This document shows, piece after piece, positions 2,323 to 9,843 of a stretch of 64,000 bases of DNA (its first letter is position 1; each line of letters opens with the position of its first letter). Made by a program: the position numbers and the translations under genes. The DNA is from a virus (taxonomy: Duplodnaviria; Caudoviricetes): IMG/VR virus record IMGVR_UViG_3300046779_001841, positions 224,001-288,000 of that record, one strand, 5' to 3'. The notes beneath the pieces are model-generated. The model did no database searches. It was given only the letters and a program-made list of their open reading frames with translations, and had not been told where the DNA came from.

Positions 2323-4541
2323 GTAATACTGCACTCACTAATAACCTAAGAAATGAACTATCACCTAAATCATCTTCTCAAGGATGGACTAAACTTTCTA
2401 TTTCACTCGCAAGTATCATTAAAGTTTATGCTGAAGAACTTAGATGTGATATTAAAGTTGTTCAAGGTGAAAAAGATGAACCTATCTATTCTGGTGTTGA
2501 AATCATTTTACCAGCATTTGGTGCTAGACATTTTCTTGGTGCTATTCCAGATGTTAATGATCTTTGTATCGTTGGCTGGATGGTCGTTGATCAAGATGGT
2601 AAAAGAAAACCTGCTATCTTAGGTTGGTTTCCTAAAACTCCTTTTCTTGGTCATGACTGGTTGCCTACTCAATCTACTACTACCGAAGAAGGTATGCTTA
2701 ATACACCAAAAGATAGACTTGAACTTAAAGGTATCTCTCATCGTATCAGAAATAAATTAAGACACTTTCAAGCTGGTAATATTGGTGCTTCTTCTTCTCA
2801 AGGTGCTGATCTTGTTTTAGATGAAAGTGTTTTATTATCTAACAGAAGAGCAAATGAAATTCGTTTAAGAGATCAAGATCAAGCACTGGTTGTTAGATCG
2901 CAACAACAATTTCACACAATGAGTGGTGCTAGAATTTATGGTGGTATTGTTCAAAGAGATGCTAGAACTTTACCTAAAGAACTTATTTCCGATGGTAGTG
3001 ATTGGGCTGATCCTTATCAATTAGATGTAGATGGTAAACCTAAACGAAATTTTAAAAACGATAATGTTTCTCAAGATAACTACAAACCACATAATCTTTT
3101 TAGAAAAGAAAGTCTTAAAGAAAAGAGCAACTTTGAAAAAGATGGTGGCTTTATCACTTTAGATCCTTATAAATTCGTTTATAATGCAAATCTTGTTAAT
3201 GAGTTTTTTGAAAATGAAAGCGAAACAAGAAGTCTTGTTTATGGTGGTAAAGCTATTCTTAGACTTAATACAGAAGGCAAACCATCTTTTAACACAAACA
3301 TGGCAACTGAATATCGTATTGAACTTAATCATCTCACTGATGGTACTTTACCTGTTAGCGAACAAACAGATGGTTTTGATGTTGATCGTTTATCCGAAGT
3401 AAAAGAAAGCAAAGACAAACTACCTTTTGTCGAATTTGTTTTAGGTTCTGTTGTTGGCAATGAAGCATTTACTCTCACTGGTAAAGATTTATATGGCAAA
3501 CCATTATCACCTAAAATTGAATTTGGTGCAGGTTCTTCTCTTGTAGATGCTTCGGTTTTAGATTTAGAAGAACATTCTGCAACACTTATAAAAGTCCAAC
3601 CTGTTGTTGGCGATGACCCAGCATCTTTTATTTCTTTTACCAAAGGTGGTGCTTTAAGAGCATTTATTGGAAATTCCACTACTGAATATGGTGTTAAAGC
3701 CAAAGTAAATAGTGGTGTTGGTCTTTCTGCACAAAAAGTTAATGTACAAACAACATCTAATTTAGATATGGTTGTAGGTGGTCAAGCCAATATCAATGCA
3801 AATAACAATATAAGTGTTTCATCCAATAAGACTATCAATATCAATGCAGTCAATACGATCAATCTTAATTCAAGTGAAAGAATAAATCTATCAGCACCTG
3901 TAGTGTCTTTAGCAGATGCAGGACAAGTAGTTCTTAAATCTCAAAGTGCTTTAAATTTTAATAGTAGTGAAACGATCAATTTATCATCTAAAGGTAAAAA
4001 TGAAACTATCATGGGTGGTTCAAACACTACTATTAGTGGTCCCAAAGATTTTAATATGTTATCGGGTCCACCAAGATCGACTAAAATCTTGGCATCACCA
4101 GCAACAGGTCAAGTCGCTGGGATTGTAGATGAAAAAATAGTAGCTTATGGTGATGAACTAAATACCTATTTAACAACAAGCAATATCACTGATCTTATTA
4201 CATCTGGAACAAAAAACATTGTGATTGGTGCGGGTGCTTTAAATATGACTGTTGGTACAAATGCTATCAATCTTACACCAGCGACTGCAATTATTAATGC
4301 TACTACTGGTGTTGCATCTGTAAATGCTTTAAGTGGTATTGCGAGTATGGTAGGTATAGGTGGTGCTGTTGTTAGTAGTGAAGCAGTTACTACTATTCGT
4401 GGTGGTGGTGCTTTAATTTTAGCAAGTAAAGGCACGAGTGTTGGTTTTATTATGTGTGGTTCAGATAGAGATACTATTACAGGTTTGCCATATACTGCAT
4501 TAGGTTTAATTCCAAGAGGACAAGTTTTAAGTGTTGGTTAA
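2319..4541 (+). CDS. Baseplate central spike (Gp5/VgrG-like)
   Basis: N-terminal OB-fold-like segment (IIKVYAEELRCDIK...GAIPDVNDLCIVGW) and C-terminal beta-helix-type repeats (NINANNNISVSSNKTININA). Confidence 0.7.
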   Translation: MSNTALTNNLRNELSPKSSSQGWTKLSISLASIIKVYAEELRCDIKVVQGEKDEPIYSGVEIILPAFGARHFLGAIPDVNDLCIVGWMVVDQDGKRKPAILGWFPKTPFLGHDWLPTQSTTTEEGMLNTPKDRLELKGISHRIRNKLRHFQAGNIGASSSQGADLVLDESVLLSNRRANEIRLRDQDQALVVRSQQQFHTMSGARIYGGIVQRDARTLPKELISDGSDWADPYQLDVDGKPKRNFKNDNVSQDNYKPHNLFRKESLKEKSNFEKDGGFITLDPYKFVYNANLVNEFFENESETRSLVYGGKAILRLNTEGKPSFNTNMATEYRIELNHLTDGTLPVSEQTDGFDVDRLSEVKESKDKLPFVEFVLGSVVGNEAFTLTGKDLYGKPLSPKIEFGAGSSLVDASVLDLEEHSATLIKVQPVVGDDPASFISFTKGGALRAFIGNSTTEYGVKAKVNSGVGLSAQKVNVQTTSNLDMVVGGQANINANNNISVSSNKTININAVNTINLNSSERINLSAPVVSLADAGQVVLKSQSALNFNSSETINLSSKGKNETIMGGSNTTISGPKDFNMLSGPPRSTKILASPATGQVAGIVDEKIVAYGDELNTYLTTSNITDLITSGTKNIVIGAGALNMTVGTNAINLTPATAIINATTGVASVNALSGIASMVGIGGAVVSSEAVTTIRGGGALILASKGTSVGFIMCGSDRDTITGLPYTALGLIPRGQVLSVG

Positions 4542-4553
4542 TAACCATTTTAT
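4540..4553 (+). promoter_or_regulatory. Putative late-promoter motif AATA-N5-TTTAT (representative copy)
   Basis: Same spacing upstream of several probable late genes (see findings); the motif is AT-rich, so specificity is low. Confidence 0.35.
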
Positions 4554-4585
4554 TCTTTTTTGTTTCTAAGAAACGAGGTCAAAAA

Positions 4586-5617
4586 ATGAATAAATATGCC
4601 ATCCAACAAATCTATCAATTAGCTTTGCATGAACAACATTCTAATACTTTAAGAATGGCTTGTATTAAAGCACTTAAAACATCATCTAAAATTCAAAAAT
4701 TCGGTAGTGATGAAAGTCATGCAAATGCTTTGAATAATCTATCACCATCTGAACAACAAGAAGTGAAAATTGGTATCTTTACACAAATCACAAATAAAAT
4801 TAAATCACTTGTTGAAACAGAAATTGGTCAAGATGTTTTGGAAACGATTACTGATTTAATCAACACTTCTGGTATTTCACATAAGATCAACAAGATCGAA
4901 ACAAAATTGAAAGCACCTAGCAATGAATTTGAAAAGATGATAAGTAATAAAGCGAAATCTTATGCTAAGGCATCAGATGCTTTAGCTTTTATTGCTAGAT
5001 TAACACAAGCTGAGAAACCAGAAGATATTGTTAAAGCCTTAGATGTATCTATGGATGAATTAGAACAAACTATTATGAATGTCACTGGTGAAAGTGTTGG
5101 TGGTTTTATTAAAGAGAAACCTGCTAATTGGTATAGACATTTTTATAAAGCTATTGCAGATATTAAAGAAGTATCTAAACTTTACACAGTAGAGTTGGCT
5201 GTTACTTTATTAGAGATTTCTATTGTTGGTGGTATTGGTATGTTTTTAGCAGGCAATCATGATGTTATGAGTATTTTTGGAAACTTATGGCATGGTGTAA
5301 AAGAAGTAATCACTTTAGTGATTGTGTCTGTAATACTCATGGATGTAAAAGACTCTGCTCAATTTATTAGAAAACAAGATATTTTTATCAAAGCGATACC
5401 TGTTGTTCTTATGAATGATCTTATTCGTGTTTTAAAATGGTCTTGGTCTAAAGTTGTTAGTTTCTTTAGTGATAAAATAGACGATGTTTCTGATTTCTTT
5501 TCTGATTGGTTAGGCAATGATAGTAAGACTGCATCGAACAAAGTATTTTTAGAAACTTTAAAATTAGCTAAACAAAATCCACATTTCCAAAACCAACTTC
5601 TACAAGTCATTTCTTAA
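4586..5617 (+). CDS. Hypothetical membrane-segment protein, paralog of 23998..24984; putative head-internal protein
   Basis: Shared N-terminal (I.QIY.L...N.LRMAC) and C-terminal (KTAS..V..E..KLA) motifs and a hydrophobic centre. Confidence 0.6.
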   Translation: MNKYAIQQIYQLALHEQHSNTLRMACIKALKTSSKIQKFGSDESHANALNNLSPSEQQEVKIGIFTQITNKIKSLVETEIGQDVLETITDLINTSGISHKINKIETKLKAPSNEFEKMISNKAKSYAKASDALAFIARLTQAEKPEDIVKALDVSMDELEQTIMNVTGESVGGFIKEKPANWYRHFYKAIADIKEVSKLYTVELAVTLLEISIVGGIGMFLAGNHDVMSIFGNLWHGVKEVITLVIVSVILMDVKDSAQFIRKQDIFIKAIPVVLMNDLIRVLKWSWSKVVSFFSDKIDDVSDFFSDWLGNDSKTASNKVFLETLKLAKQNPHFQNQLLQVIS

Positions 5618-6182
5618 CAATTTTAGCTTGAACTTTCTTTTTTCTTTGTAGATTTAATTTAGCTTCTCGCTTCATCAAATCATAAGCATGGAACTTTTGC
5701 TTGGCATCTAATTTCATATTGCCTTCTATTGTTGCAAATCCACTATCTTTATCTATTCTTCTGGATGTTAAACCTAACACATTTGGCATAAGTGTCTTGA
5801 TAAGTTTAGGATCTATCATGTTAATAGAAATATCCCAAACCATAGCTAAGATCATAGGCGCACATACTTTTAATGGTTTTCCATCATATTCGCATGGCAT
5901 CTTTTCTTTATATAAAGAAACACCACTTTGTGTTTTTAATTCCATATCAAAGAAATAAACATCTTTAGGTTCTTGATTAAAAAATTCAAAATTGAAATGT
6001 AGATGTAAATTCTTATCACCAAAGATTGGTTTAATTTCTGTAATCGTTTGCCAACCATGTATCACGATTTGCAAATCTCTTGATTCGACTAAACGACTAA
6101 TAAATTCTTGTTCGATTTCTGTTAGTGGAATATATAAAGAATTTTTATTTCCACCACCAAACAAATTAGTGTCTTTACTCAT
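5607..6182 (-). CDS. Hypothetical protein
   Basis: 191-aa ORF with AGGA RBS. Confidence 0.7.
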   Translation of the reverse strand: MSKDTNLFGGGNKNSLYIPLTEIEQEFISRLVESRDLQIVIHGWQTITEIKPIFGDKNLHLHFNFEFFNQEPKDVYFFDMELKTQSGVSLYKEKMPCEYDGKPLKVCAPMILAMVWDISINMIDPKLIKTLMPNVLGLTSRRIDKDSGFATIEGNMKLDAKQKFHAYDLMKREAKLNLQRKKKVQAKIVKK

Positions 6183-7316: not shown

Positions 7317-7394
7317 ATAAAAAAAGAGTGGATTTATTTTAAAGAATAATATAATCTGTATTGCAGATACAATCATTTACACAAAAGGTTATAA

Positions 7395-8408
7395 ATGTCG
7401 TGGATACTACCAAAAAATTTAATCACATCTCTTTATGCGCAGGATACGGAGGCATTGATCTTGGATTGTCAAGAGTTATCTCAAACTTGCGAACCATTGC
7501 TATTTGTGAGATCGAACTATATCCAATCCAAAACTTGGTTGCAAAAATGGAAAAAGGAATGTTACCTCCAACCCCCATTTGGCCGGATGTTAAAACTTTC
7601 CCATACCAAGACTTTTATGGAAAAGTGGATTTCTTTAGTGGAGGATTCCCATGTCAACCTTTTTCCAGTTCAGGAAAAAGAAAAGCAGATGACGACCCAA
7701 GACATCTCTTCCCTTATTTCAAAATGGGAATCCAGTTATGTAGACCTGCCTTTGTTTTTCTTGAAAATGTCAGAGGAATCATCTCAAGTACCATCAACAA
7801 TGATGGATGGTCAGATCCCAAAGGAACTCCAGTTTTGCTTCATGTCTGCAGGGAATTGGAAAGAATTGGTTATCAAGTTAAGTGGGGATTGTACACTGCG
7901 AGTGAAACAGGCTTGCCACATTCAAGACACCGAGTTTTTATCTTGGGTGCAAGAAATGACATCAAACAAGACCAATTCAAAGAATTTTCAAAATACTTCT
8001 CTTCTACCGAAAACAGTCAAGAATCAAACTTACAAAGAATTGGACAAGATTTTGCAGGTGTCGAAACCATCAAATCTAAGTACATTGCCACACCTAGAGG
8101 AAGAAACAGACAACAAGATAGACTTGAACCAAGAAGAACAAGATTACGAACTTCTAATGGAAGCGAATTGGGTAACACCAACCAAGAGCGATCCAGTGAA
8201 CATAGGCTTCGAGTATGTGATGAGAAGGTATCTGAACAACAGACAATTAATGGTAGCGGAACAGATAGCATTAGACATGAAACATCAATATCAGAGCCAA
8301 GAGAAATTAGATGTGAATCCACGATGGGTAGAAATGTTAATGGGTCTTCCGATTGGCTGGACTATGAAAGACTCTGCAACAGTTTTTCAAATATACAAGA
8401 TGAAATAG
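7395..8408 (+). CDS. Putative beta subunit of a split C5 DNA methyltransferase (overlapping frame)
   Basis: 337 stop-free codons in an alternate frame; ends in VNPRWVEMLMGLPIGWT (motif IX-like); AAAGG RBS upstream of the ATG. Confidence 0.7.
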   Translation: MSWILPKNLITSLYAQDTEALILDCQELSQTCEPLLFVRSNYIQSKTWLQKWKKECYLQPPFGRMLKLSHTKTFMEKWISLVEDSHVNLFPVQEKEKQMTTQDISSLISKWESSYVDLPLFFLKMSEESSQVPSTMMDGQIPKELQFCFMSAGNWKELVIKLSGDCTLRVKQACHIQDTEFLSWVQEMTSNKTNSKNFQNTSLLPKTVKNQTYKELDKILQVSKPSNLSTLPHLEEETDNKIDLNQEEQDYELLMEANWVTPTKSDPVNIGFEYVMRRYLNNRQLMVAEQIALDMKHQYQSQEKLDVNPRWVEMLMGLPIGWTMKDSATVFQIYKMK

Positions 8409-8488
8409 CTTTGCTTGGTAATGGTGTTGTCCCTGCTACTGCTGAAGTTGCTTTTAGAGATTTATTTAAACAACTGCTCGATGAATGA
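7400..8488 (+). CDS. DNA (cytosine-5) methyltransferase, alpha subunit
   Basis: Motifs I (SLCAGYGG), IV (GFPCQPFS), VI (ENVRG), VIII (PHSRHRVFILG), X (LLGNGV); likely GTG start at 7400 rather than TTG 7361. Confidence 0.9.
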   Translation: MDTTKKFNHISLCAGYGGIDLGLSRVISNLRTIAICEIELYPIQNLVAKMEKGMLPPTPIWPDVKTFPYQDFYGKVDFFSGGFPCQPFSSSGKRKADDDPRHLFPYFKMGIQLCRPAFVFLENVRGIISSTINNDGWSDPKGTPVLLHVCRELERIGYQVKWGLYTASETGLPHSRHRVFILGARNDIKQDQFKEFSKYFSSTENSQESNLQRIGQDFAGVETIKSKYIATPRGRNRQQDRLEPRRTRLRTSNGSELGNTNQERSSEHRLRVCDEKVSEQQTINGSGTDSIRHETSISEPREIRCESTMGRNVNGSSDWLDYERLCNSFSNIQDEIALLGNGVVPATAEVAFRDLFKQLLDE

Positions 8489-8847: not shown

Positions 8848-9843
8848 TTAATAAAATATATGTGCTTGGCTTTCTGCATAAGCCTGATTACTAATTTCCA
8901 CCCATTTCGCTTTAAATTGTAATTCTCTTATTGTTCTTGCTCCACTATAACTCAATCCACTTCTTATATTGATTGCTATCTCATCCAATATATCATCTAC
9001 AGATCCTTTATATCCTACTTGATGACTTACACCTTCTACTGATCTCACTGTTCCTCTCCATTGTGATTGTGCTTCTTTACTTGCCATTCCTACATACTTC
9101 TTATATTTATTTCCATGTTCATCTGTATGCACTTTACCTGGTGCTTCATCTGTACCTGCTAAATATGAACCTAGCATTACAAAATTCGCACCACCTGCTA
9201 GACACTTAACCATATCACCTGTTGTCTTAATCCCACCATCTGCAATAATTGGCATCTCATAAGTTGAACTTGCACAATCAAATACACTCGCAAGTGTTGG
9301 AATACCATGTCCTGTTTGTATTCTTGTTGTACAAATAGAACCACCACCTATTCCTACACGAACTGCATTTGCACCAGCATCTATTAAAAATTCATAACCA
9401 TCTTTAGTCGCTACATTTCCAGCGATTACATATACTTTACCATAACCATATCTTCTTCTGATCTCTTTTAAAGCATCTCCTACAACTTTTGTATGTCCAT
9501 GTGCAACATCCAAACAAAAATCTGTAATTCCCATTTCTACAAATTTATCCAAATCATTGATCTCATTACAACCTATCGCAACACATGAACTTCTTGATCT
9601 GGATGAAAGTGAAATTCTTTCTTCTATGGTATTATATCTATGAATAACACCATAACCACCTTTTTTATTCATTGCCAAAGCCATTTCATCTTCTGTTACT
9701 GTTGTCATTGGTGATGACATAACAGGTAAAGATAAAGAACGATCACCTAGTTTAGAAGATAAATCTATTTCATCTCTGGATGCTATATCTGAATATTGTG
9801 GTGAAATAAGATAGTCATTGAAAGTTTTTAAAAGCATTTGCAT
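8848..9843 (-). CDS. IMP dehydrogenase / GMP reductase family (no CBS domains)
   Basis: [27 protein letters not shown] (catalytic Cys), [23 protein letters not shown]. Confidence 0.9.

Follow-up and report, generated by a model that had tools for sequence, protein, structure and literature searches.

In a 64,000-nucleotide window (positions 224,001 to 288,000) of the IMG/VR virus record IMGVR_UViG_3300046779_001841, a jumbo phage record of 316,221 bases, the locus at 7,395 to 8,488 is open in two overlapping frames of the same strand. We read this locus as a two-chain DNA (cytosine-5) (C5) methyltransferase that is encoded by one DNA stretch read in two frames, and we put the probability of this reading at about 0.8. 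One frame, alpha, carries the catalytic motifs, and the other, beta, carries a recognition segment and motif IX. Judged from sequence and models, it is most likely an orphan methyltransferase that works as a heterodimer of the M.EcoHK31I type, with a beta chain that is overprinted over its full length. Unless stated otherwise, all positions are those of the window, by which we mean the whole 64-kb stretch.

The alpha frame is free of stops from 7355 to its stop codon at 8486-8488, and its start is taken as GTG 7400 by homology to the GTG of related genes. The beta frame, shifted by +1 relative to alpha, runs from ATG 7395 to a stop at 8406-8408 and comprises 337 codons. Because a TAA at 7392-7394 lies in the beta frame, ATG 7395 is its first possible start. 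The two starts are 5 nucleotides apart, and both frames remain free of stops across 1,009 shared nucleotides at 33% GC. An earlier note on this DNA had described a second frame that begins 5 nucleotides upstream, stays open for 337 codons and overlaps nearly the whole gene; its coordinates are accurate to the base, and the shared length agrees with its account of the overlap.

Direct reading of the alpha translation identified motifs I (CAGYGG), IV (GGFPCQPFS), VI (ENVRG), VIII (HSRHRVFILG) and X (LLGNGVVP), and no recognisable motif IX was found in this frame of the window gene. Motifs VIII and X are separated by a stretch of about 130 residues in which R, S, E and N are abundant. Alpha matched PF00145 with E = 5.7e-37, over profile positions 1-252 of 324 only, and scored 108 bits against TIGR00675, above the cut-off of 100.65. 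Alpha thus has the motifs that define a DNA (cytosine-5) methyltransferase of PF00145 and TIGR00675, and it lacks the recognition region and motif IX that in such an enzyme stand between motifs VIII and X of a single chain. The earlier note had listed the same five motifs without motif IX, which is borne out both by our reading and by the point at which the PF00145 match ends. Near the C-terminus of beta we found WVTPTKSD, a W.TP recognition segment, and NPRWVEMLMGLPIGWT, a motif IX whose end lies 14 residues from the beta stop. In PHROGs, beta residues 305-325 weakly matched phage methyltransferase profiles, in the part that covers motif IX.

The double-open frame in the window is far beyond chance. 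Within the shared region, the third frame of the plus strand contains 37 stops and the minus frames contain 19-28. The 35 other long open reading frames (ORFs) of the window (12,817 codons) have 0.079 stops per codon in their +1 frames, and the longest open +1 run among them is 110 codons. When alpha was recoded with the codon usage of the window, the +1 frame acquired 13.9 stops on average and was free of stops in 0 of 3,000 recodings; recoding of beta gave an expectation of 33 stops in the alpha frame. The alpha linker between motifs VIII and X has 0 alpha-frame stops, against 9.9 expected. The codon choices of alpha point the same way: in codons 1-190, TTA occurs at 16 per thousand compared with 41 elsewhere and TTG at 42 compared with 14, while ATA and GTA are never used, exactly the pattern by which +1 stops are avoided. 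The same record has five PF00145 genes, and the other four are canonical, with motifs IX and X in one frame. Stops were counted in three of these canonical paralogs: their +1 frames contain 29-37, with longest open runs of 32-54 codons. The fourth lacks a second ORF of 100 codons.

At the sequence level, the two-frame layout is a family trait that is found in most of the sampled relatives. A search for relatives with the single alpha protein as query found nothing, and a scan of IMG/VR with a four-sequence alignment gave at least 576, from which 80 loci were retained. The resulting family set of 84 loci, which consists of these 80 loci from uncultured viral contigs, three GenBank phages and the window, spans 32-64% GC. 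Both frames are jointly open over a median of 962 nucleotides, and over at least 700 nucleotides in 76 of the 84 loci. Of 77 scorable loci, 72 have a beta frame that stays open from the start of the gene to the end of motif VIII, and two of the five exceptions are contig ends. Interruption of beta in close homologs had been named in the earlier note as evidence that would overturn its proposal; the opposite was observed. Up to motif VIII there are only 5 beta-frame stops, compared with 316 expected when synonymous codons are permuted within each gene. A strict motif IX pattern was present in 64 of the 84 loci, exclusively in the +1 frame; for motif X, 73 loci have it in frame 0 and 6 in the +1 frame. 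In 57 of 72 loci no alpha-frame stop interrupts the linker; most of the others are loci where alpha ends early and motif X is on beta, or where beta runs past the alpha stop. Linker length and sequence are highly variable, and alpha ORFs range from 273 to 557 codons among full-length loci.

The three GenBank phages that alpha matches are distant, and all of them have the two-frame layout. Phage C75C1 encodes an alpha of 480 residues and a beta of 459 residues from starts that are 7 nucleotides apart. A tblastn match in C75C1 to the N-terminus of beta was considered as an independent protein and rejected, as it is the +1 frame of the C75C1 methyltransferase gene. In the GC-rich Synechococcus phage Ssp-JY39 (PP438429.1, 53281-54396; L003 in our set), the annotated coding sequence is beta, under the name 'hypothetical protein', and alpha is unannotated. 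Both frames of Paenibacillus phage Leyra are annotated as cytosine methyltransferase, and its beta start is internal.

Two further features were observed among the relatives. The alpha linker of most of them (for example L008, L017 and L020) contains a conserved W-P-x-R-P-G-x-x-Q-x-x-W-E-x-P-R-V just 5' of the motif IX overlap, which is absent from the alpha of the window; a PDB search with the C-terminal 182 residues of the L008 alpha, in which the linker was compared with the crystal structure 3g7u, a methyltransferase of prophage CP-933R, found no match. In L042 (171-1750 of IMGVR_UViG_3300032233_001101), the beta frame ends after a degenerate motif IX and a Cys/His-rich, HNH-like segment follows downstream in the beta frame, with alpha reading straight through for 527 codons. 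This segment resembles the hidden HNH insertions of the ShiLan methylase (PMC11855218).

Comparison of 44 alpha-beta pairs indicates that selection acts on the amino-acid sequence of the N-terminal part of beta, beyond keeping it free of stops. We compared distant pairs (less than 55% alpha identity) over the region up to motif VIII with a null that preserved each alpha protein, the codon usage of each gene and the absence of +1 stops. Beta identity was 0.347, whereas the null gave 0.233 (standard deviation 0.0035, z = 33). The same excess in the short, singly coded alpha tail past the beta stop was only 0.019, so the excess in beta is not explained by shared ancestry at synonymous sites.

The conservation can be followed to single sites. 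Residues W3 and P6 of beta are invariant and I4 is kept in at least 90% of the 44 beta sequences, while the alpha N-terminus that they overlap is variable. Beta R169 is present in 44/44 sequences because alpha A167 is always encoded by GCG (44/44, even in the window phage with its 33% GC). Likewise, the codon of alpha L153 ends in G in 41/43 sequences, which yields beta W155; alpha P59 is CCT in 41/44 (beta L61), alpha V149 is GTC in 37/44 (beta S151) and alpha G171 is GGC in 37/44 (beta A173). At the invariant alpha residues G18, P84, P87 and P105, third bases are random. Several columns of the beta alignment are better conserved than the alpha columns they overlap. The excess conservation of beta is concentrated in two blocks, at residues ~30-82 and 150-186, and is absent over alpha motif IV, where alpha is dominant. 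The beta frame of the window retains W3, I4, P6, D17, D24, S151, W155, R169 and A173. The suggestion in the earlier note that the long N-terminus of beta might have an extra function is backed by this site-specific conservation at synonymous positions of alpha. In moderately close pairs, substitutions are distributed as 31/19/50% over alpha codon positions 1/2/3 before motif VIII and as 39.5/27.5/33% after it. The peak therefore shifts from the wobble base of alpha to that of beta, indicating that the dominant frame switches from alpha to beta after motif VIII.

The start codons of the two frames are closely linked throughout the family. The sequence ATGTG, in which the ATG of beta overlaps the GTG of alpha, is found in 53/84 loci, and GTGTG or TTGTG in 7 more; in many loci the GTG of ATGTG is the only possible start for alpha. 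Where an ATGTG locus has a recognisable Shine-Dalgarno (SD) sequence, the ATG most often lies at an aligned spacing of 12 and the GTG at 14. The start region of the window, ATGTCGTG, has a 3-nucleotide insertion relative to ATGTG, which places the starts 5 nucleotides apart. Both of them stand behind a single SD-like AAAGG, in agreement with the common ribosome-binding site of the earlier note. Kohl et al. 2022 (PMC9841429) reported that AUGUG and GUGUG initiate in both frames in vitro and in vivo, depending on the SD spacing. Their native example, pqiA, has a spacing of 12/14 and an alternative frame of 15 codons (PMC9841429), and that paper cites the nested rnpA-rpmH pair of Thermus (AUGGAUG) as the sole bacterial precedent for one site serving two frames. 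The arrangement described here resembles these sites in that one ribosome-binding site precedes two start codons in different frames, and the family resembles pqiA in particular in its predominant ATGTG with a spacing that is most often 12/14. In contrast to the short alternative frames of E. coli, the second frame of this family has at least 300 codons and is under selection. Dual initiation as a mechanism has experimental precedent (PMC9841429), and by analogy we infer that it operates in this family.

Structure predictions are consistent with the division of motifs between the chains. Modelled alone, alpha has a confident catalytic domain at residues 1-205 and a confident C-terminal helix at 345-361 that contains motif X, with an unstructured stretch at 208-339 between the two. 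The model matches M.HaeIII, M.HhaI and DNMT1 over ~184-225 columns (~184 for M.HaeIII and M.HhaI), in the large domain only, and alpha also matches solved C5 methyltransferases at the sequence level. In beta modelled alone, a helix at 152-179 (predicted local distance difference test score (pLDDT) 82-94) and motif IX (pLDDT 92) are confident, and the helix coincides with the second conserved block. A predicted complex of full-length alpha and beta, which the earlier note had put forward as a check, scored 0.85 (runs 0.88, 0.85 and 0.81), compared with 0.00 for the best control. This mark was attained by 58/80 solved complexes and 2/110 mismatched pairs, counts that calibrate it only roughly, as our own alignments were used. 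The three runs had at least 61% of their contacts in common, with a partner pLDDT of at least 56. Predicted error is lowest at the contacts of beta motif IX (308-323) with alpha motif X (335-346), motif I and residues 167-172; in addition, beta 1-10 is placed on alpha 57-63 and the beta helix against alpha 150-177. The part of the complex that pairs motif IX with motif X may pass on account of its likeness to solved single-chain enzymes, and the N-terminal contacts of beta have no solved counterpart. The model supports the binding of alpha and beta, short of showing it.

These data suggest a mechanism in which one mRNA and one ribosome-binding region would feed both ATG 7395 for beta and GTG 7400 for alpha, each initiating ribosome committing to a single frame. 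Alpha (362 residues) would form the large catalytic domain with motifs I-VIII, followed by the unstructured linker of ~130 residues, after which the motif X helix would fold back onto the catalytic domain. The alpha linker would be a passenger that need only stay open to keep motif X attached. Beta (337 residues) would provide the small domain, with the W.TP recognition segment and motif IX packing on motifs X and I of alpha. Residues ~1-190 of beta, which appear to be overprinted on the codons of the alpha catalytic domain under an amino-acid selection of their own, would probably wrap around alpha or hold on to it. We further propose, tentatively and at a little under even odds, that these ~190 residues are a domain that was born by overprinting, is now selected and acts as a clamp on alpha, with the ratio of the chains set by competition between the two starts at one ribosome-binding site and with assembly possibly taking place on the shared mRNA.

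The closest known system is M.EcoHK31I of E. coli HK31 (YGGCCR; Lee, Kam and Shaw 1995), a C5 methyltransferase of two chains. As described in PMC2836561 and PMC3404938, its alpha chain carries motifs I-VIII and X together with the recognition domain, its beta chain, of 61 residues, is encoded in another frame and supplies motif IX, and activity requires both chains. M.AquI (CYCGRG; Karreman and de Waard 1990) is divided differently, with motifs I-VIII on one chain and the distal variable region and motifs IX-X on the other, according to PMC3404938, and the two enzymes are named there as exceptions among the monomeric C5 methyltransferases. The window gene agrees with M.EcoHK31I as defined in those papers: alpha has motifs I, IV, VI, VIII and X, and motif IX is on beta, in another frame of the same DNA. 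This is the split that the earlier note had proposed, and its motif IX part stands; its likeness to M.EcoHK31I needs correction in that the recognition segment is also on beta, whereas in M.EcoHK31I it is assigned to alpha. Compared with M.EcoHK31I as described there, the window gene differs in three ways. Its beta is not a small chain of 61 residues wholly inside alpha but has 337 residues and begins 5 nucleotides before alpha; the W.TP segment is on beta, and the corresponding alpha linker is predicted to be disordered; and beta has an extra selected N-terminal region of ~190 residues. Most likely, the window gene works like M.EcoHK31I and is set apart from it by the whole-gene beta, the recognition segment on beta and the extra selected domain.

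The division of M.AquI, again as described in PMC3404938, recurs in six relatives with motif X in the beta frame (among them L020, L023, L043, L063 and L075), unlike in the window, where motif X is on alpha. In these AquI-like relatives beta overlaps alpha from the gene start. Alpha has the catalytic-domain fold and motifs of M.HhaI and M.HaeIII (PF00145, TIGR00675), and motif IX of beta is predicted to lie against motif X in the way seen in a monomer; the difference from these canonical single-chain enzymes is that the small domain would be on a separate chain from another frame. The literature we searched contained no description of the family-wide two-frame layout, and only M.EcoHK31I and M.AquI were found. 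In the Paenibacillus phage paper, two cytosine methyltransferase genes appear without further remark, and the ShiLan paper deals with a hidden HNH gene inserted in such methylases, not with an alpha/beta design (PMC11855218).

Several observations weigh against our reading. The starts in the window do not overlap as in ATGTG, so that ATGTCGTG departs from the overlapping AUG/GUG near 12/14 of the Kohl et al. 2022 type, and its SD is weak (AAGG, at 11 and 16). The 44 sequences in the selection tests were picked for open frames and a dual start. Beyond the weak motif IX match, beta belongs to no family in Pfam or NCBIfam and gave no PDB profile match; in the ESM Atlas it hits viral hypothetical clusters only, with scores below 0.9. 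When modelled alone, beta folds poorly, with a mean pLDDT of 54.6 and low values for residues 1-133, and sites of excess conservation show no enrichment at the predicted interface (13/43 vs 29/123, odds ratio 1.4, p = 0.25). Lastly, three loci, L008, L029 and Leyra, are without an open beta N-terminus. L008 (2498-3613) and L029 (2492-3457) have one beta stop at the same site, shortly past the motif IV region, followed two codons later by a Met from which the frame continues without a stop across the recognition segment and motif IX, and the beta start in this lineage seems, from its sequence, to be internal. The N-terminal part would therefore be dispensable in some lineages.

Such loci are what one would expect if translation of beta began only at an internal start and gave a short C-terminal product, comparable with the 61-residue beta of M.EcoHK31I, and if the upstream frame were a tolerated leader without function. 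Leyra, L008 and L029 indicate that an internal start or an interrupted N-terminus is viable, PMC2836561 states that internal Met codons of the M.EcoHK31I beta can act as starts, and the low confidence of the N-terminus modelled alone fits as well. However, a functionless leader does not account for the strong avoidance of stops in this part (5 vs 316 expected), the conserved 5' start codon beside that of alpha, the invariant W3 and P6, or the alpha synonymous sites that are fixed where they keep beta residues, and such an excess is nearly absent from the singly coded control region; we consider this explanation unlikely. A full-length, selected beta could instead have an extra role of its own, for example as a DNA-binding regulator or a counter-defence factor, given that its N-terminal 190 residues are selected yet fall in no known family and that its conserved sites show no preference for the predicted alpha interface. 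This is more improbable still, as the recognition segment and motif IX invariably form the end of beta and are invariably missing from alpha, the complex model puts N-terminal segments of beta on alpha, and the loci examined contained no beta-like protein without an overlapping alpha frame.

The motif split could also arise if the two frames were parts of one chain. Two programmed frameshifts, +1 after motif VIII and -1 back into motif X, would join alpha, beta and alpha in the canonical order of motifs I-VIII, recognition segment, IX and X. Such a product needs neither beta upstream of motif VIII nor alpha across the linker, but both are open throughout the family; moreover, the linker varies widely (alpha ORFs of 273-557 codons), and beta possesses a start codon and an N-terminal motif of its own, both conserved. 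On the evidence of the open frames, the linker and the beta start, we rejected this double frameshift, to which we attach a very small probability, slightly below that of an extra role for beta. An assembly artefact, or a decaying pseudogene with two compensating indels, would yield the same motif split from a +1/-1 pair, but the layout recurs in most of the 84 independent loci at 32-64% GC, and both frames avoid stops throughout and not only between the supposed indels. This possibility was likewise rejected and is close to negligible.

In practice, annotation pipelines record one gene at such loci, and beta is either missing or a nameless hypothetical protein without a Pfam domain. In most members, annotation consequently misses the chain on which the target sequence most likely depends, and predictions of specificity from alpha alone would be blind to it. 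An overlap of 1 kb on the same strand, with both frames apparently selected at the amino-acid level at 32-64% GC, is a strong natural case of double coding, and few long overlaps in bacteria and phages are described in the available literature. The conserved ATGTG ties the family to a mechanism that has been demonstrated experimentally only for short alternative frames (PMC9841429), and the initiation mechanism thereby becomes open to direct tests on a gene pair whose output, DNA methylation, is easy to read. Platforms for targeted methylation have already been made from natural split C5 methyltransferases (PMC2836561), and the two-frame family offers many more candidates. If the proposal of an overprinted clamp is true, the family would form the most extensive natural collection of long same-strand overlaps with both frames selected at the amino-acid level, and the first large natural use of AUGUG-type ambiguous initiation for two long functional proteins.

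Table 1. Features of the two-frame methyltransferase locus, the adjoining gene and the canonical paralogs. Positions are those of the window except where the record is named. AdoMet, S-adenosylmethionine.
Feature	Positions	Strand	Basis and remarks
SD-like AAAGG common to both starts	7384-7388	+	Sequence; best SD match AAGG, aligned spacing 11 (ATG) and 16 (GTG)
Beta-frame TAA stop immediately 5' of the beta ATG	7392-7394	+	Sequence
Beta ORF, 337 codons and stop, +1 relative to alpha	7395-8408	+	Sequence; frame kept in the family
Beta N-terminal motif M-S-W-I-L-P (family consensus MWI.P)	7395-7412	+	44 beta sequences
Alpha ORF, 362 codons and stop, GTG start	7400-8488	+	Sequence, homology and predicted fold
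Alpha motif I, CAGYGG, AdoMet binding	7436-7453	+	Sequence
Alpha motif IV, GGFPCQPFS, catalytic Cys	7640-7666	+	Sequence
Alpha motif VI, ENVRG	7763-7777	+	Sequence
Predicted beta helix 152-179 over alpha motifs VII-VIII, with S151, W155, R169 and A173	7848-7931	+	pLDDT 82-94
Alpha motif VIII, HSRHRVFILG	7919-7948	+	Sequence
Alpha linker (residues ~206-337), the alpha-frame reading of the beta recognition segment	8015-8410	+	Predicted disordered, pLDDT 33-55
Beta WVTPTKSD, W.TP recognition-segment motif	8169-8192	+	Sequence; within the predicted interface set 254-266
Beta motif IX, NPRWVEMLMGLPIGWT	8316-8363	+	Sequence; pLDDT 92
Alpha motif X, LLGNGVVP, beginning just past the beta stop	8411-8434	+	Sequence
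IMP dehydrogenase/GMP reductase family gene adjoining the methyltransferase	8848-9843	-	PF00478, E = 9e-93
Four canonical C5 methyltransferase genes, two in tandem	179736-180881, 310256-311353, 3928-5016 and 5031-6125 of the record	-, -, +, +	Loci L084, L085, L088 and L086

We recognised no nuclease among the neighbouring genes, and the anti-restriction role named in the earlier note is an inference from this absence. For the same reason, we regard the enzyme as most likely an orphan methylase, which would protect the DNA of the jumbo phage, and the presence of five C5 methyltransferases in one jumbo phage suggests self-protection of phage DNA as its natural role. The neighbours are without a Pfam match, save for the IMP dehydrogenase/GMP reductase gene on the opposite strand, an auxiliary nucleotide-metabolism gene of the phage.

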